Origin: an uncultured Bacilli bacterium
GTDB lineage: Bacteria; Bacillota_I; Bacilli_A; RF39; UBA660
Length of the DNA stretch: 64,000 bases
Direction: 5' to 3'
Assembly: GCA_934085825.1 (NCBI GenBank)
Contig: CAKOHR010000004.1
Coordinates: 33,308-97,307 of the forward strand
The notes beneath the pieces were generated by a model, which worked only from the letters and a program-made list of their open reading frames with translations, did not search any database and was not told where the DNA came from. Positions within the stretch are counted from its first letter, which is position 1. Every line of letters begins with the position of its first letter. A program made the position numbers and the translations under genes. Below are positions 19,859 through 35,424 of this stretch, in pieces.

Positions 19859-21535
19859 ATGGAAAAGAAAAATAATATTGCCACGAAAGTTATTGCTTTA
19901 GGTGGCTTAGGTGAAGTTGGAAAAAATATGTATGTTGTTGAACACAATGATGAACTACTTATTATTGATGCTGGAGTTATGTTTCCAGAAGATAATTTAC
20001 TTGGTGTTGATTATGTTATTCAAGATATTTCATATTTAAAGAAAAATGCTGATAAAATTAAAGGTTTATTTATAACCCATGGGCATGAAGACCATATTGG
20101 TGGCATTCCATTTTTACTTCAAGCAATTAATATACCTGTTATTTATACACCAAAAATTGCTAAAGATTTAATTGAAAAGAAACTTGTGGAACGTAATATA
20201 AAATATGAAAATTATCAAATAATTACACCAGATTTTAATGTTAAAACTAAGTATTTTGATATTTCATTTATTAATACTACCCACTCTATACCTGATAGTT
20301 TTGCTATTGTTATAAAAACACCAAATGGTACTATTTTTGAAACTGGAGACTTTAAATTTGACTTAACTCCAGTTGGGCCAATGGCTGATATTCATAAAAT
20401 GGCTAAGTTTGGTCAAGAAGGTGTTACTCTACTTCTTAGTGACTCAACTAACGCTCTTACTAGTGGTTACTCTAAAAGTGAAAGCGCTGTTGATGGAACA
20501 CTTAATGATATGATTAGTAAACATCATGGCAGAGTTATTATTGCAACATTTGCTTCTAATATTTATCGTATTAAACATATTGTTGAAAGTTGCAAAAAGT
20601 ACGGCAGAAAAATCATAGTTTTTGGTAGAAGTATGGATAATAGTATTGAACTTGCCCTAAACAATGGACTTATTAATGATAGATCTATGTTTATTGATGC
20701 CAATGAAGCTAAAAGTCTAAAAAGAAATGAAATATGTATACTATGTACCGGTTCTCAAGGTGAACCACTGGCAGCCTTATCTCGTATTGCTAATGGACAA
20801 CATAAACAAATATCACTTTTAAATGATGATTTAGTAATATTTTCATCTAGTCCAATACCTGGTAATGCTGAAAGTATCAACAAAATTATCAATAAACTAT
20901 ACTTAAAAGGTGTTCGTGTATTTACAAATTCTGAATTTAGTGATGTTCATACTTCTGGACACGCGAAAGAAGAAGAATTAAAATGGATGCTTAGAATTAT
21001 TAAACCTAAATACTTTATGCCAATGCATGGTGAATATAGAATGCTTAAAAAACATACTGAAATTGGTGTAATGTGTGGAGTTGCTCCAGAAAACACATTT
21101 ATTTGTACTAACGGTGATGTTATAGAACTTTTAAATGGTGAAGTTAAAAAAGCAGGGACTGTTCAAGCTGGTGATGTTTATGTTGATGGTTCTCGTGTCG
21201 GAGATATTGGTTCTGTAGTTATTAAAGACCGTAAACTTATGAGTCAAGATGGAATACTTATTACTATTTTAAATATTAATACATTACAACGTAAACTGTT
21301 ACTTAAACCTAATGTAACTGCTCGTGGATTTGTTCTTGTTAATGAAAATCAAGAATTAATGCAAAAAATAGAAAGAAAAATTAGTGAAATTGCTAATAAT
21401 GCTTTAAGTAAAGCTCCATATAGTTATATAGATTTAAAGAATCAAATTATATTAGAATTACTTCCATTTATTAATAATTTAACTGGTAGAAAACCTATTA
21501 TATTACCCGTTATTATGGAAGTAAATCAAGCATAG
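19859..21535 (+). CDS. rnj: Ribonuclease J
   Basis: 558 aa metallo-beta-lactamase/beta-CASP; HGHEDHIGGIPFLL motif. Confidence 0.9.
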   Translation: MEKKNNIATKVIALGGLGEVGKNMYVVEHNDELLIIDAGVMFPEDNLLGVDYVIQDISYLKKNADKIKGLFITHGHEDHIGGIPFLLQAINIPVIYTPKIAKDLIEKKLVERNIKYENYQIITPDFNVKTKYFDISFINTTHSIPDSFAIVIKTPNGTIFETGDFKFDLTPVGPMADIHKMAKFGQEGVTLLLSDSTNALTSGYSKSESAVDGTLNDMISKHHGRVIIATFASNIYRIKHIVESCKKYGRKIIVFGRSMDNSIELALNNGLINDRSMFIDANEAKSLKRNEICILCTGSQGEPLAALSRIANGQHKQISLLNDDLVIFSSSPIPGNAESINKIINKLYLKGVRVFTNSEFSDVHTSGHAKEEELKWMLRIIKPKYFMPMHGEYRMLKKHTEIGVMCGVAPENTFICTNGDVIELLNGEVKKAGTVQAGDVYVDGSRVGDIGSVVIKDRKLMSQDGILITILNINTLQRKLLLKPNVTARGFVLVNENQELMQKIERKISEIANNALSKAPYSYIDLKNQIILELLPFINNLTGRKPIILPVIMEVNQA

Positions 21536-21555
21536 AAAAAAGAAAATTAGCTCAT

Positions 21556-22539
21556 CTAATTTTCTTTTTTTGTATTAAATTTTATTAAAAATAAACTTAG
21601 AATAAGCATTATAATATCTATTATTACTTTGATTAATATTATATGTGATTTAACTAAGGATAGAATAATAACACTTATTACATAATTAATTATTACATAT
21701 TTTAAATTAACATGATTATTAAATATCATTTTTATTATACATGATACTATTTTACTTAAAAGTAAGAATAAAGGGATTACATAAAATGCACTATTTATAT
21801 CATAAACTCTAGCAAATATAACTGTTTCTATAATATAAGCGAGTAATGTAAATAGAATATATGATGCAAATAAACGATATACTCTGATTGAGTCTTTAAC
21901 GGGATTAAAATGACTTGTTTCATTATCATTAATATAAATCGTTTCAATAACTACTTCTTTTATGGGTATATTTTTTATCTTTGTTTCTATTAAGACATTT
22001 GTTTCATACTCATATCTTTCTCCGGATACAGCAATTAACTCTTTAGCAATATCTAAACTCATTGCTCTAAGTCCTGTTTGAGTATCACTTACGTTTTGAC
22101 CTACAAAAGAATATAAAACATTTCTAGTTATTACATTACCAAATTTTGAACGTGCTGGTACTTTTTTATCAGAGAAATTTCTTACCCCGAGTACTAGACT
22201 ATCCAAATTTTTCTTGCCAACGTCTGCACATTTTTTTATATCTTTAACACTGTGTTGACCATCACAATCTGCAGTTACTATAACTTTGGCATCTGGATAA
22301 TTATTTAAAATATAATTTATACCATTTTTTAAACCTCTTCCCTTACCTAAGTTAACATTATGTTTTACAACTGGATATTTCTTAGCTAACCTTTTCATGT
22401 ACTCATCATGTTTTTTACTGCATCCATCATTTATAAATACAATATTTTCAAATTTTTTAGTTAATTTTCCTAAAAACGTATCCATTATTTCTTCATTTGG
22501 ATCATATGCTGGTATTAATACCACAATATCTTTATTCAT
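21556..22539 (-). CDS. Family 2 glycosyltransferase with C-terminal membrane domain
   Basis: VLIPAYDPNEE...VIVTADCDGQH (DxD) then 4 TM helices. Confidence 0.75.
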   Translation of the reverse strand: MNKDIVVLIPAYDPNEEIMDTFLGKLTKKFENIVFINDGCSKKHDEYMKRLAKKYPVVKHNVNLGKGRGLKNGINYILNNYPDAKVIVTADCDGQHSVKDIKKCADVGKKNLDSLVLGVRNFSDKKVPARSKFGNVITRNVLYSFVGQNVSDTQTGLRAMSLDIAKELIAVSGERYEYETNVLIETKIKNIPIKEVVIETIYINDNETSHFNPVKDSIRVYRLFASYILFTLLAYIIETVIFARVYDINSAFYVIPLFLLLSKIVSCIIKMIFNNHVNLKYVIINYVISVIILSLVKSHIILIKVIIDIIMLILSLFLIKFNTKKEN

Positions 22540-22540
22540 A

Positions 22541-23629
22541 TCATTCCCCTGCCCTTATATTTGTAATTTTCCATGTATTATTATCTTTTATAAAGTATAT
22601 GTAGTCGTGTAGTGTATCTGTTTGATCTTGATTATTAACTAACATATTTTTTTCTGAATAAACTTCACAAGAAAACGCGTCTTTGCTGTATATTATAAAA
22701 TTATTTAATTTTTCATTAGTAAATATCGGATCTTTTAAAGTGTGTTTACTGGTAAAAGTAATGTCGACTTCATGAGCCCAATTGTAAGCTCTACGACTTA
22801 TTTCTGAACCATCTATAAAGTACTCTTTTATTTTATTATAGCCGTGGGCTAATCCTCCTAGGTCATCTGTCAAAAATAAACTCCAATCATGAACAAAAGT
22901 CCAAATGTCTATTTCACTACTTAAATATTTTTTTGCTTTTTCATAATTATCAAATTTCAAGTAATTGTCTTTAACTTTATATGAAAATTTATTTTTTTCT
23001 AAATTCACTTTTTCTCCGTATTCATCAATAGCTTCAACATTCACTTCTTTTGTTAAATTATTAATTTCATAAGTTTTTATGTATGGCATTGATGTATTTA
23101 AGTACATAAAATCTAGATTCTTATATTTTTCTGTTTTTGCTGCCTGTTCTATTTCTTTTCCATCCACGATAATTTTATATGTTGATGGTGCTGTTATATC
23201 ATAGTAAATTAAACCACGGTCTAGATTTGGAATAATTTTTGTTATTTTGCGTATTTCATAACTAAACATACCTAATTTAGTTTCAGTTTTTAAATATTTA
23301 GTTTCAATATCAAATAGTGTTCTTTCATTTAATGTTGCTTCAAAATTATTCTCATCTTTCTTTTTTATTATAATATCTTTGTCTCTTATTAACTCTTTAT
23401 AATCTTTTAAAAGTGACTCATCTAGGTTATTATCTTTTAAATATTCTTTCAAAGTTGAATCATCTAAATTTGCTATTGACGTTTTTATAAAATTTGTTAT
23501 CTGATTTTTTTCATAAGTCTTTAATGTTATAAATATATAAATTAAAAATACAACACATAAACACATAGCTATTATAGTATAAATGAGTAATATCTTCTTA
23601 TACTTTCTTTTTCTCCTTGATCTTGTCAT
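22541..23629 (-). CDS. Membrane-anchored hypothetical protein (envelope cluster)
   Basis: ORF with basic N-terminus MTRSRRKRKYKK plus one TM; start chosen at internal Met to avoid 40-nt overlap with upstream gene. Confidence 0.45.
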   Translation of the reverse strand: MTRSRRKRKYKKILLIYTIIAMCLCVVFLIYIFITLKTYEKNQITNFIKTSIANLDDSTLKEYLKDNNLDESLLKDYKELIRDKDIIIKKKDENNFEATLNERTLFDIETKYLKTETKLGMFSYEIRKITKIIPNLDRGLIYYDITAPSTYKIIVDGKEIEQAAKTEKYKNLDFMYLNTSMPYIKTYEINNLTKEVNVEAIDEYGEKVNLEKNKFSYKVKDNYLKFDNYEKAKKYLSSEIDIWTFVHDWSLFLTDDLGGLAHGYNKIKEYFIDGSEISRRAYNWAHEVDITFTSKHTLKDPIFTNEKLNNFIIYSKDAFSCEVYSEKNMLVNNQDQTDTLHDYIYFIKDNNTWKITNIRAGE

Positions 23630-23631
23630 AA

Positions 23632-24666
23632 TTAATTTTCCTTTACTACAAATGCGGTTGGTAATTTCCAAGAAGAATTGGAACGATAAAAGGTTACACT
23701 ACTCATTAAATATTCACTTTTATAGTACATTGACGAGGAGCTACCACCATCAATATTAGCTGCATTGATAGCATCATATTCTGACATTATCTCAATTAAA
23801 TCTGAAGCTGTTGCACCAAGGTGTCCATTTTTACCTCTGCCATCAGTTACTAATATTAATACACTTCCATCTTTTCTTTGACCTATCGCAGTTCGGGGAT
23901 TTGCTCCACTTCCTAATCCATTTAATTCTCTTTTTTCACCATTTATTATAAGTTTAACAAAATGATTATTTTTATCTGATGCTTCTTCTTGAAAGGAAAT
24001 GGCATCTCTAATTTTTTCTTCTTTTAACATTTTTTCAACACTTTCGTTTGTCATGCCTTCTAAGTTTATTATTCGAAGCAAATTATTTGCATCAAAACCA
24101 ATTAAATATAAACCAATCACCCCAAGATTTATATCTTGTATTTCACCATTACTAACTGTTACTCCAAGTGGTTTACCACCTTTATTTCCACTTGAATAAT
24201 AAATTCCGCCATTTACCCCAGCAATGGCACCTGATTCTTTAACTAAAACATCCAGTTCTTTGCCATACTCACTCCATGGGTATGTTGTTGCTATACTCAC
24301 TTTGGAAGGATCATTTACTATCATCATTGTGCCTTCAAAATTATTGCCACTTATTTTATGGATTTCAATTAATTCTTTTTCTTTACTAATTTCAGTTTTT
24401 ATCAATTCCGTATTTACCTCTTCATCCATTTGCGATAAAGAATTTTTGTTTACTATTTCTTCTAATTCAGTTTTACTTAAAAATACATTTGCTAAAAATT
24501 TTAATTGACCAGTTTCAAGAATAGTTGTGGCAAATAATTCTTTAGCACTTTTGCTTGGGCCATGACATATTAATATTAACGTAGATATTAAAGCCACGAA
24601 AAGTACACCTAGAGTTATACCTAGAAATGATGCTATTTTGCCTAAAATACTTAATACTTTTTTCAT
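23632..24666 (-). CDS. Phosphodiester glycosidase-family (NAGPA-like) exported protein
   Basis: N-terminal TM, then GVNGGIYYSSGN...ANIDGGSSSSMYY motifs typical of DUF2233/phosphodiester glycosidase domain. Confidence 0.6.
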   Translation of the reverse strand: MKKVLSILGKIASFLGITLGVLFVALISTLILICHGPSKSAKELFATTILETGQLKFLANVFLSKTELEEIVNKNSLSQMDEEVNTELIKTEISKEKELIEIHKISGNNFEGTMMIVNDPSKVSIATTYPWSEYGKELDVLVKESGAIAGVNGGIYYSSGNKGGKPLGVTVSNGEIQDINLGVIGLYLIGFDANNLLRIINLEGMTNESVEKMLKEEKIRDAISFQEEASDKNNHFVKLIINGEKRELNGLGSGANPRTAIGQRKDGSVLILVTDGRGKNGHLGATASDLIEIMSEYDAINAANIDGGSSSSMYYKSEYLMSSVTFYRSNSSWKLPTAFVVKEN

Positions 24667-24760
24667 ACCTATATTTACTTCTCCTTATCCTTTTCTTACC
24701 TATCTATAATATCATAAAACATAATGTAAATAAAGCTTTTTTGGTATAGAAAAGAAGAAA

Positions 24761-26314
24761 CTATTTAGCTTCTTCTTGTACTCTTGTCTCACGAATAACT
24801 GTTATTTTTATTGTACCTGGATATTGCATTTCATTTTCAATTTTTTCCTTAATATCTCTAGCCATTTTATAACTTTTGGCATCATCAACTTCTTGAGGTT
24901 TTACAATTACACGTAGTTCACGGCCAGCTTGCATAGCAAATGTTTTTTCAACACCTTCATAAGAATTGCCAATTTCTTCAAGTTGTTCTAGTCGTTTAAT
25001 GTAATTTTCTAATGAGTCATTTCTTGCACCAGGTCTTGCTGCTGATAATGTATCTGCGATAGCTACTAAAACAGCAATTGTGGATTTGGCTTCTGTATCA
25101 CCATGATGTGATGCTATGGCATCTAGTACAACTTCTGGTTCACGATGTCTTTTAGCAAATTCAAAACCTATTTCTACATGACTTCCTTCAACTTCAAAGT
25201 CTATAGCTTTACCAATATCATGAAGTAGGCCTGCTCTTTTAGCTAGTGTTACATTTTCACCAAGTTCTGCAGCCATAAGACCACAAAGATTTGCTACTTC
25301 AATTGAATGTTTTAAAGCATTTTGACCATAGCTTGTTCTAAAATTTAATTTACCAACTAATGTAACAAGTTCTGGATCCATCTTTGTAATGCCTAAATCA
25401 TTAATTGTTTGATTACCAATTTGGATTATTCTAGCATTAACATCCTTGAGAGTTTTGTCATAAACTTCTTCAATACGTCCCGGATGTATTCTACCATCTT
25501 TGATTAATGTTTCAATTGTAATCTTGGCTATTTCTCTTCGAAGTGGATCAAATGATGATAAACTAATGGCTTCTGGTGTATCATCAATAATTAAATCAAC
25601 ACCTGTTACGGATTCAATAGTTCTAATATTTCTTCCTTCACGTCCAATTAGTCTTCCTTTCATATCATCATTAGGTAGATCAATTGTACTTACTGTTTGA
25701 TTGCCCACAACATCATCAGCATATCTTTCCATGCTATTTACAATAAGTTGTTTAGCAATTTCATGAGCTTCTAATCTGGCTTTAGCTTCTTCTTCCTTGA
25801 TATAGTTTGTTATTTCAAGTTCCATATCATTTTCAACACGTTCCATAATGACCTTGCGTGCTTTTTCTTTACTATATCCAGCAATTTTTTCAAGTTGCGC
25901 TATTTCTTCTTTCATTAGCACATCCATTTTGTCCTCTTTTTCTTGTAATTTTTTTTGTTTTGCTAATAAATCGTTTTCTTTTTCTTGTAGAGAATTATCT
26001 CTTGTTTGTAACATTTCTTCTCTTTTATCAAGATTATTTTCTCTAGTCAAAAGTCGATCTTCGGATTGTAAAATTTCGGCTTTTCTTTGTTTTATTTCAG
26101 CATCGGTTTCTTGCTTGATGCGATATGATTCTTGTTTTAATTCAAGTAAGGCATCTCTTTTGCTTTTTTCAGCTTCTTTTTTAGCATCTTCAATTAATTT
26201 ATTAGCATTTTTCATAGTTTTTGAAGCTTTATTCGAAAGAATAAAATAAAGTACTCCACAACCAATAAGAATTCCAACAATAAGGGATAAAATGGCGAAT
26301 AATATTTTATCCAT
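24761..26314 (-). CDS. rny: Ribonuclease Y
   Basis: N-terminal TM, coiled coil, KH domain, HD domain (HSIEVANLCGLMAAELG...LLHDIGK). Confidence 0.9.
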   Translation of the reverse strand: MDKILFAILSLIVGILIGCGVLYFILSNKASKTMKNANKLIEDAKKEAEKSKRDALLELKQESYRIKQETDAEIKQRKAEILQSEDRLLTRENNLDKREEMLQTRDNSLQEKENDLLAKQKKLQEKEDKMDVLMKEEIAQLEKIAGYSKEKARKVIMERVENDMELEITNYIKEEEAKARLEAHEIAKQLIVNSMERYADDVVGNQTVSTIDLPNDDMKGRLIGREGRNIRTIESVTGVDLIIDDTPEAISLSSFDPLRREIAKITIETLIKDGRIHPGRIEEVYDKTLKDVNARIIQIGNQTINDLGITKMDPELVTLVGKLNFRTSYGQNALKHSIEVANLCGLMAAELGENVTLAKRAGLLHDIGKAIDFEVEGSHVEIGFEFAKRHREPEVVLDAIASHHGDTEAKSTIAVLVAIADTLSAARPGARNDSLENYIKRLEQLEEIGNSYEGVEKTFAMQAGRELRVIVKPQEVDDAKSYKMARDIKEKIENEMQYPGTIKITVIRETRVQEEAK

Positions 26315-26423
26315 TTCAATCCTCCATTTTTCTATAGAATATATTTTTATTTATATCTCTATAAGTCTATTATAAGGGTAAATCAATAAATAATCAAGAG
26401 CAAATTAAATATTGATCAAATAC

Positions 26424-26453
26424 AAAAACGCTAGCATTTGAGCTTAGCGTTTT
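26424..26453 (-). terminator. Terminator downstream of nrdD small ORF
   Basis: AAACGCTAAGCTCAAATGCTAGCGTTTTT on minus strand. Confidence 0.5.
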
Positions 26454-26467
26454 CATATTCTTTTTAT

Positions 26468-26650
26468 CTATTTACTGCAAGAACAAGTTTTGAAAGTATG
26501 TTTTACTCTGTCATGTTCTTCAGCTTTTTTACCATTGTTAAAACGATCTACTGTACCTACCAAATATCCCGTTATTCTTCTAATTCTTTCAAACTCTACT
26601 CCTTCACCTGTAACTTTTTTTGATTTTACTTCTTCTTCTACTTTTTCCAT
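26468..26650 (-). CDS. nrdD: Separate small ORF encoding the C-terminal glycyl-radical segment of anaerobic ribonucleotide reductase
   Basis: MEKVEEEVKSKKVTGEGVEFERIRRITGYLVGTVDRFNNGKKAEEHDRVKH matches the NrdD C-terminus (RRVCGYLG...RPFNAGKQEEVKRRVKH in E. coli; the radical Gly is in TGY); RBS AAGGAAAGGAA; starts 5 nt after stop of large ORF, different frame. Confidence 0.7.
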   Translation of the reverse strand: MEKVEEEVKSKKVTGEGVEFERIRRITGYLVGTVDRFNNGKKAEEHDRVKHTFKTCSCSK

Positions 26651-26655
26651 ATTTT

Positions 26656-28974
26656 CTATTCCTTTCCTTCTAATCTTTTTAGTAAATCAACACTAACTGG
26701 TTCACCAGTTTTTCTTCCACATCTTGGACATACGTCTTTAATAATTCCAACATATCCACAAACTGGATCTCTATCTACTGGGTGGTTAATTGCTCCATAA
26801 CCAATGTCACTTTCTTTCATAATTCTAACAACGCTTTCAAATGCTTCAAGATTGTCTGATGGATCTCCATCAAGTTCAATATAACTGATATGACCTGCAT
26901 TTGTAAATTTATGATATGCTCCCTCAATTCTCAATTTATCGGCAATAGAAATATTGTAATAAACTGGAACATGGAATGAATTTGTGTAATAAGCTCTATC
27001 TGTTACGCCCTTAATCTTTCCATATATATCTCTATCTATATTTACAAATCTACCAGATAAACCTTCAGCTGGAGTAGCTAAACATGTAAAATTCAAATTA
27101 TATTTCTTGCTGTATTCATCACATTTTTCTCTGATATGTCCAATAATTTCTAAACCTAATTTTTGGGCTTCTTCAGATTCACCGTGATGTTCACCAATTA
27201 AAGCTTTTAAACATTCTGCAAGTCCTATAAAGCCAATTGAAAGTGTACCATGTTTTAAAACTTTCTTTAATTTGTCGTTTGGTTTTAATTTGTCACTATC
27301 AAGCCATACACCTTGACCCATTAAGAATGGGAAGTTATATACTCTTTTGTTACATTGAATGTCATATCTTTCAAGTAATTGGTCTTTTACAAGTTCCATT
27401 AATTCATCGAGTTCTTCATAAAAACCTTTCATGTCAGCTTCATCTAATGCATCTTTACCAACTATACCATGTTTAATACCTATTCTTGGCAAGTTAATTG
27501 ATGTAAATGATAGGTTTCCTCTACCTGGTGTAATTTGCTTATCTGGATCAACTACATTACCTATTACTCTTGTACGGCATCCCATATAGCCAACTTCAGT
27601 ACGGAAGTCTCCCGCTTTATAGTACGGTTTGTTAAATGAACTATCTAAGAATGACCAATTTGGAAATAATCTTTTTGCTGAAACTCTCAAACTTAATTTA
27701 AATAAATCATAATTGGGATCACCAGGATTATAGTTAACTCCTTCTTTTACTTTAAATATTGAAATTGGGAATATTGGAGTTTCTCCTTGACCAAGTCCTG
27801 CTTCACTAGCAAGCATATAATTTTTAGTAACCATTCTACCTTCACTAGATGTGTCTGTTCCAAAATTAATTGATGAAAATGGTACTTGAGCTCCAGCTCG
27901 TGAATGCATAGTATTTAGATTGTGTACAAAAGCTTCCATAGCTTGATATGTTCTTCTATCAGTCTTTTCAAGTGACTTTGTTATGGCCATATCAAACATT
28001 CTTTTCATTAATTCTGAATTTTTATAATATTTTTCAAAATAATCTACTGTTATATCAATTGTACTTATTTTAGCAATGTCTTTTTCAATAGTTGACATAT
28101 TAATGTAATCATTTAAGTCTTCTAAATCAACATAATCTTTTATTGAAGTTTTTAACATTTTTTTAAATGTTTTTAGTACTCCTGGTGCTAGATAATAGTC
28201 AAATGCTGGTATTGCTTGTCCACCGTGTTGATCATTTTGATTTGATTGAACTGCTATTGCGGCAAGTGCTGAATAACTCATTATATCATTTGGCTCTCTT
28301 AGATGACCATGTCCTGTTGAAAACCCATTTTTAAATAGTTTATCTAAATCAATTTGCATACAGGTTGTTGTTCCCATTGCTTCAAAATCCATATCATGAA
28401 TGTGAATGTATCCTTCATCGTGGGCATCTGCAAACTTTTTCTTCATTAAATAAGATTTTGCAAATTCTCTTGAAACATTTGAGCCAAATTGAAGCATTGT
28501 TCCCATTGCGGAATTTCCATCTATATTTCCATTTTCTCTTTTAGCATCGTCTTCGGCAGCACTTTTTAAGGCTAAACCTTCTAATGTTTTTAAAAATTTG
28601 TGACTTCTTTTATCTTCTGTAAATGTTTCTCTGGCTTTTGCTCTGTTTTCTCTATAATTTGCAAAATTTTCGTAAACATCATCATATTTGTCTTTCTTTA
28701 GTGTATCTTCAATAATATCTTGAATATCTTCAATTTTGATACTAGCCTTTTCGGCATAATCTTTTTCAATTTTTTTAATAACATGTCCAAAAACTTTTTG
28801 GATGTCATTTGATGAATATTTCAAAATTTCTTCTTCATCTTCGTTAGTGACTTTAATACTATCAAAGCCTTTTTTAATTGCCATGGCTATCTTAGTTTCA
28901 TTAAAACTTACTTTAGAACCATTCCTTTTAACCACTTTAATTGTTTCAAAAAATTCTTCTTCTTTATTCGGCAT
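26656..28974 (-). CDS. nrdD: Anaerobic ribonucleoside-triphosphate reductase, catalytic large part (ends after Zn-ribbon CPRCG)
   Basis: 772 aa; ATP-cone N-terminus, class III RNR core, C-terminal ...DPVCGYVGIIKDVCPRCGRK then stop TAG. Confidence 0.9.
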   Translation of the reverse strand: MPNKEEEFFETIKVVKRNGSKVSFNETKIAMAIKKGFDSIKVTNEDEEEILKYSSNDIQKVFGHVIKKIEKDYAEKASIKIEDIQDIIEDTLKKDKYDDVYENFANYRENRAKARETFTEDKRSHKFLKTLEGLALKSAAEDDAKRENGNIDGNSAMGTMLQFGSNVSREFAKSYLMKKKFADAHDEGYIHIHDMDFEAMGTTTCMQIDLDKLFKNGFSTGHGHLREPNDIMSYSALAAIAVQSNQNDQHGGQAIPAFDYYLAPGVLKTFKKMLKTSIKDYVDLEDLNDYINMSTIEKDIAKISTIDITVDYFEKYYKNSELMKRMFDMAITKSLEKTDRRTYQAMEAFVHNLNTMHSRAGAQVPFSSINFGTDTSSEGRMVTKNYMLASEAGLGQGETPIFPISIFKVKEGVNYNPGDPNYDLFKLSLRVSAKRLFPNWSFLDSSFNKPYYKAGDFRTEVGYMGCRTRVIGNVVDPDKQITPGRGNLSFTSINLPRIGIKHGIVGKDALDEADMKGFYEELDELMELVKDQLLERYDIQCNKRVYNFPFLMGQGVWLDSDKLKPNDKLKKVLKHGTLSIGFIGLAECLKALIGEHHGESEEAQKLGLEIIGHIREKCDEYSKKYNLNFTCLATPAEGLSGRFVNIDRDIYGKIKGVTDRAYYTNSFHVPVYYNISIADKLRIEGAYHKFTNAGHISYIELDGDPSDNLEAFESVVRIMKESDIGYGAINHPVDRDPVCGYVGIIKDVCPRCGRKTGEPVSVDLLKRLEGKE

Positions 28975-29334
28975 AATACTTACCTTCCCTTCACAATTTC
29001 ATTATAGTATACTTCAAGATAATTGTCTATAAAAAATTAATTTTTATTTTTTTAGAAAAATTGTATTTTGCTTTTTTAGGTCTTATTTTTCGTTGTTCGT
29101 ATTTTTTCACAACTTTAAGCAAAGTTAGATATTTACTGGTCAAAAACATCTTTTTCCATTTTTTATTAATTTTTACATTTTTTTACTTTTTTACTTTTTT
29201 CAATTTTCACAAAATTGACATATCAAAATTTTACACTAAAAAATCTTGCAATAAAACTACTAATTTTTACCAAATTTTTCACTTATGCTTGCGAATTTTT
29301 AAGTTTTTGCTATAATATATAAGGAAGTGATTTT

Positions 29335-30693
29335 ATGTTTAATAATAAAAAAATTCATTTAATTGGAATCGGTGGCATCAGCATGAGTAGTATTGCCCTT
29401 ATGCTAACTAATATGAACGCAGTTGTAACCGGTAGTGATATAAATGAAACAGAAATAACTAATAATTTGGAAAATCAAGGAATTAAGAGTTTATATGGAC
29501 ACCATCCTGAGTTAGTTTCGGATGCTGATATTGTAGTATACACTGCAGCTATTCATGAAGATGATCCAGAAAGAAAAGCTATAACTGAATTTAATAAAGT
29601 ATCTTATGAAAGAGCAGAATTTTTAGGAATATTGATGAAAGAATTTGAAAATTCTCTATGTATATCTGGGACACATGGTAAAAGTACTACGACAGGAATG
29701 GTAAGTTTAATTTTCTTAGAAGCAAATCTTAATCCAACTATTCAAGTCGGAGCCATTATGCCTGAAATAAATGGTAATACACATTTAGGAAATCATAATT
29801 TCTTCATCATGGAGGCTTGCGAATATGTTGATTCATTTTTACATTTTCACCCTACTAGTGCAATCATAACTAATATTGATAATGATCATCTTGATTATTT
29901 TAAAAATTTGGATAATATAAAGAAATCTTTTTCAAAATATGTGGGATTACTTCCTGCAGATGGATATTTAGTCAAAAATAATGATGATGAAAATTCTAAA
30001 TCTCTTGAAGATTATACTAATGCTCATGTTATTACATATGGTATTAATAATGATTCCGATTATATGGCTAAAGATGTTAATTATAATGGCTTGGGACATT
30101 ATTCTTACAAACTATATAAAAATCATAACTATTTGACAACTATCAATTTAAGTGTTAATGGTTACCACAATATATATAATTCATTGGCAGCTTTTGCTCT
30201 AGCTAATCAATATATCAAGGATACTAACATAATTAGAAATGCTTTGGAAAAATACCATGGTGTTGGACGTAGATTTGAATATATAGGTAAGTACAATGGA
30301 GCTTATGTTTACGATGATTATGCACATCATCCATCAGAAATAAAAACTACTTTAGAAAGTGTTAAAAGCGTTAGACATAATGAATCGTGGGCAGTTTTTC
30401 AATCACATACATTTTCTAGAACTAAAGAACATTTAGATGATTTTGCCGATGTTCTTAGTTATTTTGATCACATTGTTATAGCAAAAATATACCCAGCACG
30501 CGAAGTTAATACTTTTGGGGTTTCAGAAGAAATGCTTGTTGAAAAAATAAAAGAAGAAAATAAAAATGTTGTATATATTGATGATTTTAATAAGATTGTT
30601 GATTATTTAAAAGAAAATGTTAAGCCAGAAGATTTGGTTATAACTATTGGAGCTGGACCAATAAATGATGTTGCAAAAAAACTTGTAGATTAA
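29335..30693 (+). CDS. murC: UDP-N-acetylmuramate--L-alanine ligase
   Basis: IHLIGIGGISMSSIA...GTHGKSTTT Mur ligase motifs; promoter TTGCGA-16-TATAAT upstream. Confidence 0.9.
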   Translation: MFNNKKIHLIGIGGISMSSIALMLTNMNAVVTGSDINETEITNNLENQGIKSLYGHHPELVSDADIVVYTAAIHEDDPERKAITEFNKVSYERAEFLGILMKEFENSLCISGTHGKSTTTGMVSLIFLEANLNPTIQVGAIMPEINGNTHLGNHNFFIMEACEYVDSFLHFHPTSAIITNIDNDHLDYFKNLDNIKKSFSKYVGLLPADGYLVKNNDDENSKSLEDYTNAHVITYGINNDSDYMAKDVNYNGLGHYSYKLYKNHNYLTTINLSVNGYHNIYNSLAAFALANQYIKDTNIIRNALEKYHGVGRRFEYIGKYNGAYVYDDYAHHPSEIKTTLESVKSVRHNESWAVFQSHTFSRTKEHLDDFADVLSYFDHIVIAKIYPAREVNTFGVSEEMLVEKIKEENKNVVYIDDFNKIVDYLKENVKPEDLVITIGAGPINDVAKKLVD

Positions 30694-31679
30694 TCTTTAC
30701 AAGTTTTTATTTGATTTCGATACTCTTCTAAAATATTTATTATTTCTTCTTTGCTTTTTCCTTTACATACTAAATTTTTAGTGTTACTTGCATCCGGCAT
30801 ACCTTTTAAATAATTAAGTAAATGCATTCTCATTTCTAAAACGGCAGCTTTTTCACTTTTATCTTCACAAAGTTTATTAAGATGATATTCCATCATATCA
30901 AGTTTTTCGTCATAGTTTATTGTTCGTGGCTGAGTACCATTTTCTAAATAATCAACGCATTCTTTTATAAGCCACGGATTACCTAAAAGTCCTCGGCCTA
31001 TCATTACAGCACTACATTTTGTTTCTTCAAGCATCCTCTTAGCATCATAACATGATAAGATATCACCATTTCCTATAACTGGTATCGATACTGCTTCCAC
31101 AACTTTTTTTATGATGCTCCAGTCAGCTTTGCCAGAATAACCTTGTGCTCTTGTCCTAGCATGAATTGTTATGGCACTTGCTCCATTTTTTTCACATATT
31201 TTGGCAATTTCTACAGCATTTATACTATTTGCATCCCAACCACTTCTAATTTTAACTGTAACTGGAACCCTTACAGCTTCTACGACGGCCTTTACTATTT
31301 GTCCGACTTTCTCTGGATTTTTTAAAAGCGCACTTCCGGCTTGATTTTTTATTGCAACTTTAGGTACTGGACATCCCATATTTATATCTATTATATCTGG
31401 ATGCATCTTTTTCTCAACAATTTTGGCAGCTTCCACAAAAGAACTTATGTCACTACCAAAAATTTGTTGACTAATTGGCCTTTCATCCTCATTCATCTTT
31501 AGTAGTTCAAATGTTTTTTCATTGCCAAAAGTTATTGCTTTGTCACTAACCATTTCTGCTACAACTAAAGAAGCACCCATAGACTTGCAAATTCTTCGAA
31601 AAGTCATGTTACTTATGCCAGCCATCGGAGCTACTACAATACAACCGTTTATTTTGACATCTCCAATATAAAAACTCAT
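30690..31679 (-). CDS. dus: tRNA-dihydrouridine synthase (DusB-like)
   Basis: VVAPMAGISNMTFRRICK...INMGCP...catalytic Cys; TIM barrel Dus family. Confidence 0.85.
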   Translation of the reverse strand: MSFYIGDVKINGCIVVAPMAGISNMTFRRICKSMGASLVVAEMVSDKAITFGNEKTFELLKMNEDERPISQQIFGSDISSFVEAAKIVEKKMHPDIIDINMGCPVPKVAIKNQAGSALLKNPEKVGQIVKAVVEAVRVPVTVKIRSGWDANSINAVEIAKICEKNGASAITIHARTRAQGYSGKADWSIIKKVVEAVSIPVIGNGDILSCYDAKRMLEETKCSAVMIGRGLLGNPWLIKECVDYLENGTQPRTINYDEKLDMMEYHLNKLCEDKSEKAAVLEMRMHLLNYLKGMPDASNTKNLVCKGKSKEEIINILEEYRNQIKTCKD

Positions 31680-32236
31680 TTTCTTAAAACTCCAATATCT
31701 CCAGGTGTAATTAAAAATGCGTTGGCATCATCTGTATCTAAATGAGCTTCATAAAATCCATCTTCACTCACCTTGGCATAAACATCTATTATTCCTGGCT
31801 TAATGCCACCAATTTCTAATTTTAATATTTCTTCATCTTTTACATTATACTTTTTAGCATCACTCTGACTAAAGTGAACATGTCTTTCAGCAATTATAGC
31901 AAAATTGCCGGTGATTTCTCCAAGATTAGTTTCAATCGTTATTTTTGCAGCACCATCCAATTTTCCACTTTTTTTTACCGGAGGAATAATTCCTAGCTTT
32001 CTGGCGTCATAAGCAGATATTTCTACTTGATTGTAACTTCTTGCTGGGCCAATAATCCTAACATTTTCAATTTTACTTTCACCATTTCTGATTGTAACAG
32101 TTTCTTCGGATGCGTACTGGCCAACTTGATTAAGCATATTTCGTACATGAAGTTCATGGCCAAATAAAATTTCTATTGCTTCTTTAGTCAAATGCACATG
32201 TCTGGCACTAATATTTAATGTAACTTTTTCTTCCAT
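31676..32236 (-). CDS. pduL: PduL-type phosphotransacylase (phosphate propanoyl/acetyl-transferase)
   Basis: Two PduL repeats with SARHVHLT and AERHVHFS motifs. Confidence 0.7.
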   Translation of the reverse strand: MEEKVTLNISARHVHLTKEAIEILFGHELHVRNMLNQVGQYASEETVTIRNGESKIENVRIIGPARSYNQVEISAYDARKLGIIPPVKKSGKLDGAAKITIETNLGEITGNFAIIAERHVHFSQSDAKKYNVKDEEILKLEIGGIKPGIIDVYAKVSEDGFYEAHLDTDDANAFLITPGDIGVLRK

Positions 32237-32237
32237 G

Positions 32238-32906
32238 CTAATCCTCCATATCTATAATATCACATTTTACTATTTTTCCTTTTTCAAAATATAACTTTAT
32301 AATGTTAATACTTTGCTCTGCATCATCTATTATAACTCTATCATCAAAACTTAAAATTAATCTATCATCTAAATTATACCCTTTTTCAAGCTTATCTAAT
32401 AAATAAGCCATTATTGCACTTTTTTGTGTAAATATAACAGTATTTCTATATCCTTGTTTCTTAATTATTCTATCTATAGCTATATTCATTCTTTTATTTA
32501 CATCCGAAAGGCTTTCTCCGTGATTAAATTTAAACTCAAAATTTCTTTCTTGCATAAACCTTAGCATTTTTATATTTCTTTTTCCTAGATCTCCCAGCTT
32601 TAAATCGTTTAAAAAAGAATTTATAATAATATCACATTTTTTTAATGAAGCATAATATTTAGCACAATCTATACTTGATGCGTAGCTTGATGAATATATA
32701 ACATCTGCATCTATTTTTTTGGCTAATTTAACTGCTAGCTTTTCTCCAGCGATTGAAAGAGGTCTGTTTATTCTTTTTTCTTCTAACCTTTCATCAGTTT
32801 CATAAACTATATCATCTATTACTAAATTATTACTAACTAGGTACAGTATCATCTTTATCACCTTCTTAATTTTACCAAATAAATTAATTATTGACAATAC
32901 TTTCAA
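32238..32906 (-). CDS. Hypothetical protein, possibly degenerate histidine-phosphatase/phosphoglycerate-mutase-like fold
   Basis: ORF in operon with pduL and dus; catalytic RHG not evident; true start probably internal Met (MILYLVSNN, ~32852). Confidence 0.4.
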   Translation of the reverse strand: MKVLSIINLFGKIKKVIKMILYLVSNNLVIDDIVYETDERLEEKRINRPLSIAGEKLAVKLAKKIDADVIYSSSYASSIDCAKYYASLKKCDIIINSFLNDLKLGDLGKRNIKMLRFMQERNFEFKFNHGESLSDVNKRMNIAIDRIIKKQGYRNTVIFTQKSAIMAYLLDKLEKGYNLDDRLILSFDDRVIIDDAEQSINIIKLYFEKGKIVKCDIIDMED

Positions 32907-32940
32907 AATAATCTATAGTAGTAGTTGAAGGCGGTGTACT

Positions 32941-35424
32941 ATGAAAAATACTTTAATTGAAATTTTTAAACCAAATCCTAAAAGTTTAACATTAAATGAT
33001 ATCAAAGAAGCTCTTGGTTACAAAAATATTACAAACGTTCAAAAGCGTCATCTTGTTAAAAAACTGTTAAAATTAGAATTAGACGGAAAAATATATTACG
33101 ACTTTGTTGGTAATTGTTATTATGTGTTTCCATCTAATTTTTTTGTATCAAAAGTTAATAAGAATGTAGATGGTAAAATTATTTTTGGTATCAATGGTGA
33201 ATTACAAGAAATGAATACTAATAATGTTAATGCTAAAAAGAAAGATTTTATAATTGTAAAAAAAGAAAATGATGGTTATAAACTAGTCAAAGTTATAGGT
33301 AAAGCACAAGAGTTAGAAAGTGAGGAAGATTTAGAAAAAATATATAATTTATTTAATCCATATTCAGCTTCTTACAAATTTAAAGATCTTCTTAAAATTA
33401 CAAAAGCTTCTGAAGATGATTTAAAAGATACTTTAAATGAGCTTGAAAATGAAGGAATTGCTTATTATGATCCCCAACAGGATTTATATAAAACAATGCC
33501 TTCAAATTATTTTATTGCAACTGCTGAAGTGACAAGAAAAGGTTTCTATAATGTTAATTTTAATGGAATAATGTATTGTTTACCATATGAAAGTACATCT
33601 GGAATCTTACCATTTGATAAAGTTCTATTAAAAAAAGAAGGAAAAAATATTTCTTTAGTAAAAATTATAAAAAGAGCTAATCCTCAAGTAGTTTGTGAAA
33701 TTTTAGATGATAAAAAAATAAAAATAGTTGGTTATAATAATATTAATGTAAGATGTACTGATCAGGAATTTCAAAAATTAAATCTTCCAGTTGGGACAAG
33801 ATTTTTGGCAAATATTGATTGTATAGAATTTAATAATGCTTATCCAGTTCAATTTTTAGGGGTTCTAGGACATAAAAATGACTTAAATGCTGAGCTTGAA
33901 GCTATCACTTATAATAATGGTTTTAAAGTTCGTTATTCAAAAGAGGAATTAGATCAAGCATATAGTTTACCTACAGAAGTAACTGAAGAAGATAAAAAAG
34001 ATCGTATTGATTTAACAGAAGAAAATATATTCACTATAGACGGAGCTCATACTAAAGATATGGATGATGCTGTATCAATTAGAAAACTTGAAAATGGTAA
34101 TTATGAATTAATGGTGTCTATTGCTGCTGTGTCGCATTATATAAGATATAATAGTCCGCTTTACTTAAGAGCTGCTTATAATACTACAAGCGTTTATCTT
34201 ATTAATGGCGTAAATCATATGCTTCATCCACAAGTGTCTAATGGTATTTGTTCTTTAAATCCTAATGTTGAAAGACTAGCTAAAACTTATAAAATTGAAA
34301 TAAATCCTAAAGGCAATATTGTAGACTTTTCTTTCTTTGATAGTGTTATAAAGTCAAAAAAGAAAATGACTTATGAAGATTGTAATGAAATATTTGAAAA
34401 TAATAAAATTCCTAATGGTTATGAACCATTTGTAAATGATTTATTAATAATGCAAGAACTTGCTCAAATTATTGAAAATCGTCGGCGAGAAAATGGAGCA
34501 CTTGATTTTGGAAACAATGAAATTGAATTTGTCTTAGATGATAATGGCACAATTGTAGATGTTGTTCATCGTAAGCAAGGTGCGGCAGAAAAATTAATTG
34601 AAAATTTTATGGTTATAACTAATGAAGGAATTGCTGAATATATGTATAATTTAGGAATTGAATTTGTTTATAGAAATCATGAAATTCCATACGATGATAA
34701 AGTAAAGGAAACTATTAAATTGATAACTTCAATGGGATATAGGGTTAATGCTTTAGAAAATAGTGATGATCCACATGTTATGCAGACGGTCATTAATAGT
34801 TTAAACTCTAGAGAAGAATTTTTCATTTTATCTTCCCTACTTTTAAGGTCTATGCAAAAAGCTTATTTTAGTACGGAAAATAAAGGACATTATGGTTTAG
34901 CATTAACAGCTTATTCTCAAACTACTTCACCAATTAGAAGACTTATGGATTTAATTATAGAATACATTCTTGATAATATAGATAAAATATATGATGGAAC
35001 CTTGGATATGGAAGAACTTAAACCTTCACTTAATAGTTTGTGTGAAAGAGCTTCAATGATGGAAAGATGTGCTGATAAAGCTGAATATGAAGCTAATAAA
35101 CTTTATATGATTGATTATGTTTTAAAACATCAAGATGCTATTTACGAAGGATATATTCAAGAAATTACACCACGTTATATGATTGTAAAAACTAAAGAAT
35201 TAATTGAAGGGATTGTCTTTTTTGAAGATATTGAAGATGGATCTTATGTTTATAATCCTGATTGTAAATGTTTGGAAAATCCTAAAACTAGACATAAAAT
35301 TATGATTGGTAGTAAACTTAAACTTAACTTTAAAGATGCTAATCGAGAATATAGAATTTTGAGATTTAATGCAGAAGTTAATACTCTAGAAAAAGAAATA
35401 ACACTTGCAAGAACAAAGAACTAA
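32941..35424 (+). CDS. rnr: Ribonuclease R
   Basis: 827 aa with RNB catalytic domain (TIDGAHTKDMDDAVS) and C-terminal S1 domain; promoter TTGACA-17-TATAGT. Confidence 0.9.
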   Translation: MKNTLIEIFKPNPKSLTLNDIKEALGYKNITNVQKRHLVKKLLKLELDGKIYYDFVGNCYYVFPSNFFVSKVNKNVDGKIIFGINGELQEMNTNNVNAKKKDFIIVKKENDGYKLVKVIGKAQELESEEDLEKIYNLFNPYSASYKFKDLLKITKASEDDLKDTLNELENEGIAYYDPQQDLYKTMPSNYFIATAEVTRKGFYNVNFNGIMYCLPYESTSGILPFDKVLLKKEGKNISLVKIIKRANPQVVCEILDDKKIKIVGYNNINVRCTDQEFQKLNLPVGTRFLANIDCIEFNNAYPVQFLGVLGHKNDLNAELEAITYNNGFKVRYSKEELDQAYSLPTEVTEEDKKDRIDLTEENIFTIDGAHTKDMDDAVSIRKLENGNYELMVSIAAVSHYIRYNSPLYLRAAYNTTSVYLINGVNHMLHPQVSNGICSLNPNVERLAKTYKIEINPKGNIVDFSFFDSVIKSKKKMTYEDCNEIFENNKIPNGYEPFVNDLLIMQELAQIIENRRRENGALDFGNNEIEFVLDDNGTIVDVVHRKQGAAEKLIENFMVITNEGIAEYMYNLGIEFVYRNHEIPYDDKVKETIKLITSMGYRVNALENSDDPHVMQTVINSLNSREEFFILSSLLLRSMQKAYFSTENKGHYGLALTAYSQTTSPIRRLMDLIIEYILDNIDKIYDGTLDMEELKPSLNSLCERASMMERCADKAEYEANKLYMIDYVLKHQDAIYEGYIQEITPRYMIVKTKELIEGIVFFEDIEDGSYVYNPDCKCLENPKTRHKIMIGSKLKLNFKDANREYRILRFNAEVNTLEKEITLARTKN

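Follow-up and report, generated by a model that had tools for sequence, protein, structure and literature searches.

Oxygen destroys glycyl-radical proteins by cleavage at the glycine, and in glycyl-radical enzymes the loop must exit the barrel to reach the activase. The systems closest to the locus described here are the single-chain class III ribonucleotide reductases (RNRs), or NrdD, represented by the enzymes of Prevotella copri (8P23) and T4 (1H79) and by the formate-dependent group. In the P. copri enzyme the radical glycine is Gly711 and contacts of Tyr712 and Arg719 have been described, and the glycyl-radical domain of the single-chain enzyme is highly mobile (PMC11226230). Our locus lies in a 64,000-nucleotide (nt) stretch of DNA, called the window throughout, from an uncultured Bacilli bacterium (contig CAKOHR010000004.1 of assembly GCA_934085825.1, positions 33,308 to 97,307, forward strand). 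It consists of an nrdD open reading frame (ORF) of 772 amino acids (aa) that lacks the radical glycine and, just downstream, of a 60-aa ORF that carries the glycyl-radical motif. We are largely confident that the locus encodes a naturally split, obligate two-subunit class III RNR with a cheap and exchangeable radical subunit.

The two ORFs together resemble a single-chain NrdD in having an ATP-cone, a barrel, a zinc ribbon, the Cys and Asn residues taken as catalytic, and a radical loop and tail of the form RITGYLVGT...DR(F/W)N..K.AE..DRV.H, with nrdG located 3’ in relatives. Unlike in the single-chain enzymes, the glycyl-radical domain is cut between the zinc site and the glycine loop, and the loop is made as a 60-aa product of its own. 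The large chain also differs from them in retaining a degenerate duplicate of the pre-glycine strand and in having Asp in place of the first ribbon Cys.

Stand-alone glycyl-radical proteins have been described for another enzyme of this type. GrcA/YfiD of E. coli and Y06I of phage T4 are autonomous glycyl-radical cofactors that rescue oxygen-cleaved pyruvate formate-lyase (PFL), and YfiD needs an overlap with the strand kept in the truncated enzyme for efficient rescue of cleaved PFL (PMC13450708). The 60-aa peptide is likewise a small, stand-alone radical-glycine protein with a phage-borne version, and it overlaps a strand that is kept in the truncated enzyme. It differs from GrcA in being derived from NrdD and not from PFL, with a match to PF13597 only and none to the Pfam Gly_radical family. 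At 50–70 aa, of which about 35 form the core, the peptides are also shorter than GrcA with its 127 aa and, whereas GrcA backs up a complete enzyme, the peptide is obligate here, with a partner that never has its own glycine. By analogy, the peptide would resemble GrcA in function, but it does not belong to the GrcA family. An earlier reading of the window, here called the original prediction, had compared the small ORF with GrcA acting as a spare part for PFL. The detached radical module was upheld, but no complete partner enzyme is present; since the peptide is the only carrier of a radical glycine at this locus, it would be an obligate subunit and not a spare for a complete enzyme. Damage by oxygen is irreversible in glycyl-radical enzymes, and the GrcA/YfiD spare part of PFL is the one repair strategy known for them. 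According to papers from 2021 and 2026, spare-part proteins have been validated for PFL only, and their existence for other glycyl-radical enzymes is an open question (PMC8683613; PMC13450708).

Two further kinds of interrupted RNR gene are known. The split class II RNR NrdJa/NrdJb, found in Pseudomonas aeruginosa and Thermus phage phiYS40, is encoded by consecutive ORFs that are sometimes 12 nt apart (PMC3653736, PMC9669993). There, too, an RNR catalytic chain is carried on two consecutive ORFs, but NrdJb bears C-terminal redox and zinc domains and not the radical site. Where phage nrdD genes are interrupted, the break has been ascribed to introns, inteins or homing endonucleases or has been left without explanation, and none of the interruptions reported puts the radical glycine on a separate small protein (PMC3653736). 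Unlike the phage genes with introns or homing endonucleases, the present locus has no intervening mobile element and its radical piece is autonomous. A search of the open-access full-text literature turned up no account of an NrdD that is split at the glycine loop. The locus is a real and widespread variant of a known enzyme, and apparently one that has not been described.

The large ORF belongs to the class III RNR catalytic subunits by profile, scoring 625 bits against PF13597 (cut-off 26) and 1020 bits against NF005497 (cut-off 764; model positions 3–711 of 746), together with 48.5 bits against PF03477. It is composed of an ATP-cone (aa 12–112), an alpha/beta barrel and a zinc ribbon. C205 (in TTTC), C466 (in MGCRTRV) and N487 (in RGNLS) have counterparts in the alignment to P. 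copri NrdD, and none of the three varies among 15 relatives; they are taken here as catalytic residues, with the thiyl-radical Cys on the finger loop and the Cys and Asn of the formate-dependent type, following what is known of NrdD (PMC11226230). The predicted ribbon, D736-x-x-C739...C749-x-x-C752, has three Cys and one Asp, where the usual Zn(Cys)4 ribbon has four Cys. Asp replaces the first ribbon Cys (DRDPVCG...CPxCG) throughout the clade, in split and fused members alike, and four ribbon Cys, with CxxC kept, are present in the Anaerobiospirillum (L088) and Eggerthella phage versions. The TAG stop codon follows 19 residues after the ribbon. The chain ends in ...CPRCGRKTGEPVSVDLLKRLEGKE, that is in KRLEGKE, and carries no RxxGY motif, so that the glycyl-radical motif is missing from this chain and lies on the separate 60-aa ORF.

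The ATG of the small ORF lies 5 nt past this TAG, in the +2/-1 frame, and is preceded by GAAGGAAAGGAA. Its translation, MEKVEEEVKSKKVTGEGVEFERIRRITGYLVGTVDRFNNGKKAEEHDRVKHTFKTCSCSK, bears the motif RRITGYLVGT, and the ORF has the features of a stand-alone small protein with a radical glycine, encoded apart from the catalytic body. The small ORF covers positions 710–744 of NF005497, so the two pieces abut in the profile. A similar fit was obtained against P. copri NrdD, the closest solved enzyme: residues 14–755 of the large subunit align to 9–705 of 8P23, and residues 20–51 of the small subunit to 707–738, the span that holds QRITGYLVGT and the radical Gly711. The residues through which the P. 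copri loop contacts the barrel and flap, the Tyr after the Gly and the Arg of DRF/DRW, are also kept. Relative to 8P23 the two chains have about 17 + 19 = 36 extra residues. The original prediction had placed the nrdD stop just past the zinc ribbon, a 60-aa ORF 5 nt further on in another frame with its own ribosome-binding site, and about 35 extra residues between the pieces, and the present alignments and the Shine-Dalgarno (SD)-like stretch before the ATG (Table 1) agree with it on each of these points. Both chains jointly make up an NrdD as defined, and neither does so singly.

Selection on the small ORF was assessed in its 37-codon core. The median ratio of nonsynonymous to synonymous substitution rates (dN/dS) was 0.077 over 2564 pairs, and the peptide core is under strong purifying selection. 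Among 53 diverse members, G15, F20, R22, R24, R25, T27, G28, Y29, L30 and G32 are invariant. A Pfam scan of the small ORF at E <= 0.1 returned only PF13597 (NrdD C-terminus) and no PFL-type Gly_radical match, and the NCBIfam scan returned NrdD models only. No model dedicated to the small peptide is present in Pfam, NCBIfam or PHROGs.

A scan with one genome per species identified 80 loci with an nrdD 67–95% identical to that of the window. All 80 come from uncultured gut Bacilli, with record names that include “Tenericutes”, CAG:460, CAG:609 and Ca. Coprovivens. Comparison with close relatives had been put forward as a check by the original prediction, and nrdD was found to be split at the same place in 79 of the 80, only L072 being continuous. 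Junction statistics were taken over 80 split loci, comprising these 79 relatives and the window. The distance from the large-ORF stop to the small-ORF ATG ranges from -4 to +83 nt, with an overlap of the two ORFs in two loci, and the relative frame is 0, +1 or +2 in 26, 33 and 21 loci, respectively. The large ORF ends in TAA (56 loci), TAG (22) or TGA (2), and an SD-like motif is found within 20 nt 5’ of the small ATG in 78 of these loci. Because the gap, frame and stop codon all vary, no frameshift or read-through mechanism fits the junction, whereas independent initiation does. These comparative data bear out the notion of a detached, separately translated glycyl-radical module.

The gene pair also recurs in independent assemblies. 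The identical 60-aa protein is encoded on at least 22 independently assembled contigs (53 index blocks) from the human gut, including Hadza metagenomes, and the same 772 + 60 aa pair was called in all four of the independent metagenome places shown. Among the best 120 large-subunit homologues, all 119 that are non-chimeric have a short ...LEGKE-type tail after the ribbon and no glycyl-radical motif. One candidate for a fused relative, P0396 (786 aa), was rejected because its short contig looks like a chimera in which the C-terminus comes from another type of NrdD. Taken together, the comparisons indicate a split of ancient origin that is conserved and subject to purifying selection.

The tail that follows the zinc ribbon in the large subunit records how the split arose. 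It ends 2 residues past the former radical-Gly position. When tails were compared with the pre-glycine strand by BLOSUM62 (62 distinct pairs), register 0, which is set by the zinc ribbon, gave +0.92 per position, as opposed to -0.7 to -1.7 per position at the other eight offsets; against shuffles of the same pairs, the register-0 similarity had a mean z of 3.8. HMMER places the large-subunit tail on ...KTVDVVKRT of PDB 9d3x. In L085, a more distant split system, the large subunit ends in ...ERIRRIKSYKV before its stop codon, which is the radical motif with Gly changed to Ser. Across 63 distinct tails, the former-Gly position holds Gly in only 22 and Asn, Cys or Ser in others. The similarity in the ribbon register, the 9d3x alignment and the L085 tail together show that the split arose by duplication of the segment from zinc ribbon to glycine. 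The upstream duplicate decayed to the short tail, and the downstream duplicate acquired a start codon. About half of the extra residues are a vestigial duplicate of the pre-glycine strand and not a linker. The large subunit ends at about the site where oxygen would cleave the single-chain enzyme. In a neighbour-joining tree without bootstrap, the fused L072 is nested among split genes and the split L085 and L088 fall outside. Recombination between the duplicated segments would account for this nesting, and L072 is tentatively viewed as a secondary re-fusion. The locus shows how a gene can be split through duplication followed by decay, and recombination between the duplicates may possibly fuse it again.

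Relatives of the small ORF are numerous. A phmmer search over 1.84 billion cluster representatives gave 2044 matches at E < 1e-3, of which 593 were at E < 1e-10. The best 150 representatives are all stand-alone proteins of 51–174 aa that are named “hypothetical” in the databases, and the best 120 homologues in 90%-identity clusters are all 53–87 aa long. The core (V/I)GEGVxFERIRRITGYLVGTxDRFNNxKRAEExDRVKH is common to them, and the tails are very diverse. The labelling of the peptide as “hypothetical” by annotation pipelines represents an annotation gap. Among the cellular contexts examined, nrdG lies directly 3’ of the small ORF in L046–L084, and L085 has the order nrdD (751 aa), small (94 aa), nrdG, nrdR. 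In L088, a gammaproteobacterial metagenome-assembled genome (MAG) of Ca. Anaerobiospirillum pullicola, nrdD (754 aa) is followed after a 324-nt gap by the small ORF (59 aa, “hypothetical protein” at NCBI) and then nrdG. Directly upstream of their split nrdD-small-nrdG set, L083 (539–3213) and L084 carry another nrdD, which is single-chain, belongs to a divergent type (...CPKCGSSDLTKIDRMNGYLS...) and is accompanied by an nrdG of its own.

In one peptide subtype of 92–120 aa, the radical motif is preceded by about 50 additional N-terminal residues (MKINVxGG...DGxYVDMxYTF). Members of the subtype include L085 5001–5285 (P0124), P0166, P0230, P0234 and P0269, as well as peptides at the viral loci L116, L151, L157, L162, L166 and L168. 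In L085 this peptide is still located 3’ of a truncated nrdD with the ERIRRIKSY tail. A Pfam search with the N-terminal extension gave no match.

The peptide is also common in viruses. More than 551 viral contigs in IMG/VR encode a relative of the small peptide, and the contexts of the best 80 (L090–L169) were examined. In 74 of these 80 the peptide is an orphan: neither tblastn nor a profile HMM (hidden Markov model) identified an NrdD barrel within 6 kb, and there is no nrdG within the same distance. Fused nrdD genes were found on four of the 80 contigs and truncated, split-type nrdD genes on three (L126, L143 and L163), where the small gene lies 0.7–1.7 kb downstream, or upstream. In L091, a bona fide phage, the orphan has a DNA methyltransferase gene on one side and endolysin-like, terminase and portal genes on the other. 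L087, which carries baseplate and integrase genes, is a prophage. One phage group has a peptide that matches the chromosomal small subunit of Ca. Anaerobiospirillum at 88% identity, variable ends included. The cultured Eggerthella phage EL753P1 (L170, OP172808.1) carries a split-type nrdD of 952 aa with no radical glycine, then a 102-aa hypothetical gene and then the peptide ORF, annotated as hypothetical (5932–6140). This ORF is frameshifted between RRI and TGY of its motif, where the string ATCTGACC occurs twice, and the frameshift may reflect either an error in sequencing or a genuine disruption. Judging from these contexts, selection evidently acts on the peptide module by itself, and the module is exchanged between hosts and phages.

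The 60-aa ORF may be a member of a large, unrecognised family of autonomous class III RNR glycyl-radical cofactors. In many anaerobes these would be the obligate, replaceable subunit of a glycine-less NrdD, and in phages a stand-alone auxiliary gene, often derived from the host, that re-arms host NrdD for deoxynucleoside triphosphate (dNTP) synthesis during infection or after oxygen damage. We regard the chances of this wider proposal as evenly balanced. If it is true, autonomous NrdD cofactors would answer whether spare-part radical proteins exist beyond PFL, and part of the virome “NrdD” signal would consist of such peptides. Phages are in this way suggested to manipulate the dNTP supply of the host with a gene of 50–70 aa.

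Other explanations of the split were considered. A sequencing or assembly frameshift in a gene that is truly one continuous nrdD would leave a stop codon and, 5 nt on, the rest of the protein in another frame, and this pattern is the classic mark of an indel. Such an error is not expected to recur as the same pair in four independent assemblies and as the same small ORF on at least 22 contigs, nor to leave a junction whose sequence, spacing and frame differ among 79 relatives or a short tail on every non-chimeric large homologue of the best 120. Moreover, removing the stop gives no normal NrdD, as the 36 or so extra residues, duplicated strand included, remain. The probability of an error of this kind is negligible. 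Programmed recoding, by frameshift or stop read-through, would yield one fused NrdD chain from the same two ORFs; their 5-nt separation in the window is suited to it, and read-through is formally possible at the 26 of 80 loci with the small ORF in frame 0. However, the shift needed would be 0, +1 or +2 depending on the relative, gaps reach 83 nt, two loci have overlapping ORFs, and each of the three stop codons is used. No junction feature is conserved, and what is conserved instead is a start codon with an SD-like motif. The phage versions vary in gene order and distance and include orphan peptides without a nearby nrdD, and recoding is accordingly very improbable. The original prediction had listed frameshift error and recoding as its alternatives; both are excluded by the same pair on independent contigs together with the variation of the junction.

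The absence of the essential glycine from the large ORF could also mark a decaying pseudogene that has lost its C-terminus and left two non-functional pieces, and MAG records labelled Tenericutes, Mycoplasma or Bacilli are consistent with a putative reduced-genome lineage. Both pieces are nevertheless intact in genomes down to 67% identity, and the same architecture is found in the gammaproteobacterial MAG and in phages. The low dN/dS (0.08) and the invariance of the Cys and Asn taken as catalytic exclude pseudogenisation, to which we assign next to no likelihood. A further alternative is that the small protein does not complete the large subunit and acts mainly in another role, for instance on NrdG or NrdD as a competitive regulator or a decoy, or by supplying the radical to a different glycyl-radical enzyme. 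The phage orphans show that the peptide is selectable without a linked nrdD, and the vestigial tail of the large subunit could itself fill the loop site. The tail counts given above argue against this, because a large subunit whose tail usually has no Gly at that position lacks its own radical glycine and would be dead without a donor. The peptide also keeps all the residues that contact the barrel and flap in P. copri, and the two genes appear to be co-transcribed and form an operon with nrdG in relatives. A main role elsewhere is therefore unlikely.

In the split two-subunit enzyme favoured here, NrdG, presumably encoded elsewhere in the genome (downstream in relatives), would abstract hydrogen from Gly28 of the peptide. 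The peptide loop would insert into the barrel of the large subunit beside the thiyl-radical Cys466, in the manner of the covalently attached loop of single-chain NrdD. The peptide would be held there by contacts of Tyr29 and Arg36, the equivalents of P. copri Tyr712 and Arg719, and possibly also by pairing with the vestigial tail strand. Oxygen damage would cost a 7-kDa peptide rather than a 96-kDa enzyme, and the free peptide would be an easier activase substrate, as the loop would no longer need to flip out of the barrel. The module would act in trans, which would explain why phages carry the peptide alone. The locus and its relatives are a testable spare-part candidate for the essential DNA-precursor enzyme of strict anaerobes, and the core of about 35 residues is a small natural candidate for studying target recognition by the activase.

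Several points weigh against this account of a split enzyme. The single-chain nrdD of L072 (4001–6400; CPGCGRTEEDGVHFERIRRITGY...), although the only fused gene among the 80 relatives, demonstrates that the split is not indispensable. A search of the 64-kb window for radical-SAM ORFs with CxxxCxxC found no nrdG, in line with the earlier statement that no nrdG is adjacent, whereas in distant split relatives nrdG is directly 3’ of the small ORF. Production, activation and binding of the peptide are deduced here from the genes, and its selective advantage (cheap replacement and easier activation) is argued by analogy with GrcA and PFL. AlphaFold2 models of the concatenated large and small subunits were unusable, with a predicted local distance difference test (pLDDT) score of 34 from the single sequence and 46 from a 73-row alignment of close homologues, so that the proposed docking is drawn from homology. 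The core of about 35 residues, which has no zinc ribbon, is much smaller than the folded domain of GrcA, and this bears on whether it could bind tightly by itself.

The coordinates of the features are collected in Table 1. The promoter-like site 5’ of nrdD is a putative promoter by its consensus match. The hairpin directly 3’ of the small ORF folds at -21.3 kcal/mol (z = -5.3), and none of 200 shuffles was as stable. A consensus terminator scan with a loop limit of 3–8 nt reported no terminator 3’ of the small ORF, probably because the loop of this hairpin exceeds that limit. A promoter-like site 5’ of the large ORF and a terminator 3’ of the small ORF indicate that the two genes form one transcription unit. 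A pattern search for NrdR boxes gave matches at chance level only, none close to nrdD. An Rfam scan of the whole window gave no family at gathering score, which argues against a riboswitch 5’ of nrdD.

Table 1. Features of the split nrdD locus and of nearby RNA-degradation genes (window coordinates)
Feature	Position	Strand	Basis or remark
nrdD large ORF, 772 aa	26656..28974	minus	Catalytic subunit; TAG at 26656-26658
Small ORF, 60 aa, stand-alone NrdD-type glycyl-radical peptide	26468..26650	minus	ORF call, profile and structure alignments
Codon of Gly28, predicted radical glycine, equivalent to Gly711 of P. copri NrdD	26567..26569	minus	RITGYLVGT in both
Conserved core of small ORF, GEGVEFERIRRITGYLVGTVDRFNNGKKAEEHDRVKH, aa 15-51 (Gly loop, next helix, tail)	26498..26608	minus	dN/dS, invariant columns
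C-terminal Cys pair of small subunit, C56-S-C58	26477..26485	minus	Comparison of C-termini
Position of the first ribbon Cys, Asp here, in D-P-V-C, aa 736-739	26752-26769		D736 aligned with first Cys of CLDC in 8P23
Zinc-ribbon segment, CGYVGIIKDVCPRCG, aa 739-753	26716..26760	minus	Alignment to 8P23
Vestigial tail, RKTGEPVSVDLLKRLEGKE, aa 754-772	26659..26715	minus	Degenerate paralogue of small-subunit KVTGEGVEFERIRRITGYL
SD-like purine stretch for small ORF, GAAGGAAAGGA	26660..26670	minus	Within 3’ end of large ORF
Best sigma-70-like promoter 5’ of nrdD, TAGACA-17-TATAAT	29001..29029	minus	11/12 consensus matches
Intrinsic terminator hairpin and U-run, directly 3’ of small ORF	26419..26460	minus	Direct folding
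RNase J	19859-21535
RNase Y	24761-26314
RNB-domain RNase R-like ORF	32941-35424

The C-terminal Cys pair of the small subunit has counterparts elsewhere in the family. A Cys pair (CSC, CC, NSCNC or CGC) is present at the C-terminus of one subunit or the other and almost never of both: in 67 distinct systems it was found on the large tail only in 24, on the small subunit only in 20, on both in 2 and on neither in 21. Large-subunit tails with the pair occur in L032, L046 and L050–L084. Cys makes up 4.2% of residues in the C-terminal tails of the small proteins, compared to 0.9% in their N-terminal tails. The pair could be a redox or metal site common to both C-termini.

The neighbours of nrdD are housekeeping genes, namely those for RNase Y, MurC, Dus, RNase R and RNase J. 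Three of these are RNA-degradation genes that lie inside 16 kb around nrdD (window 19859-35424).

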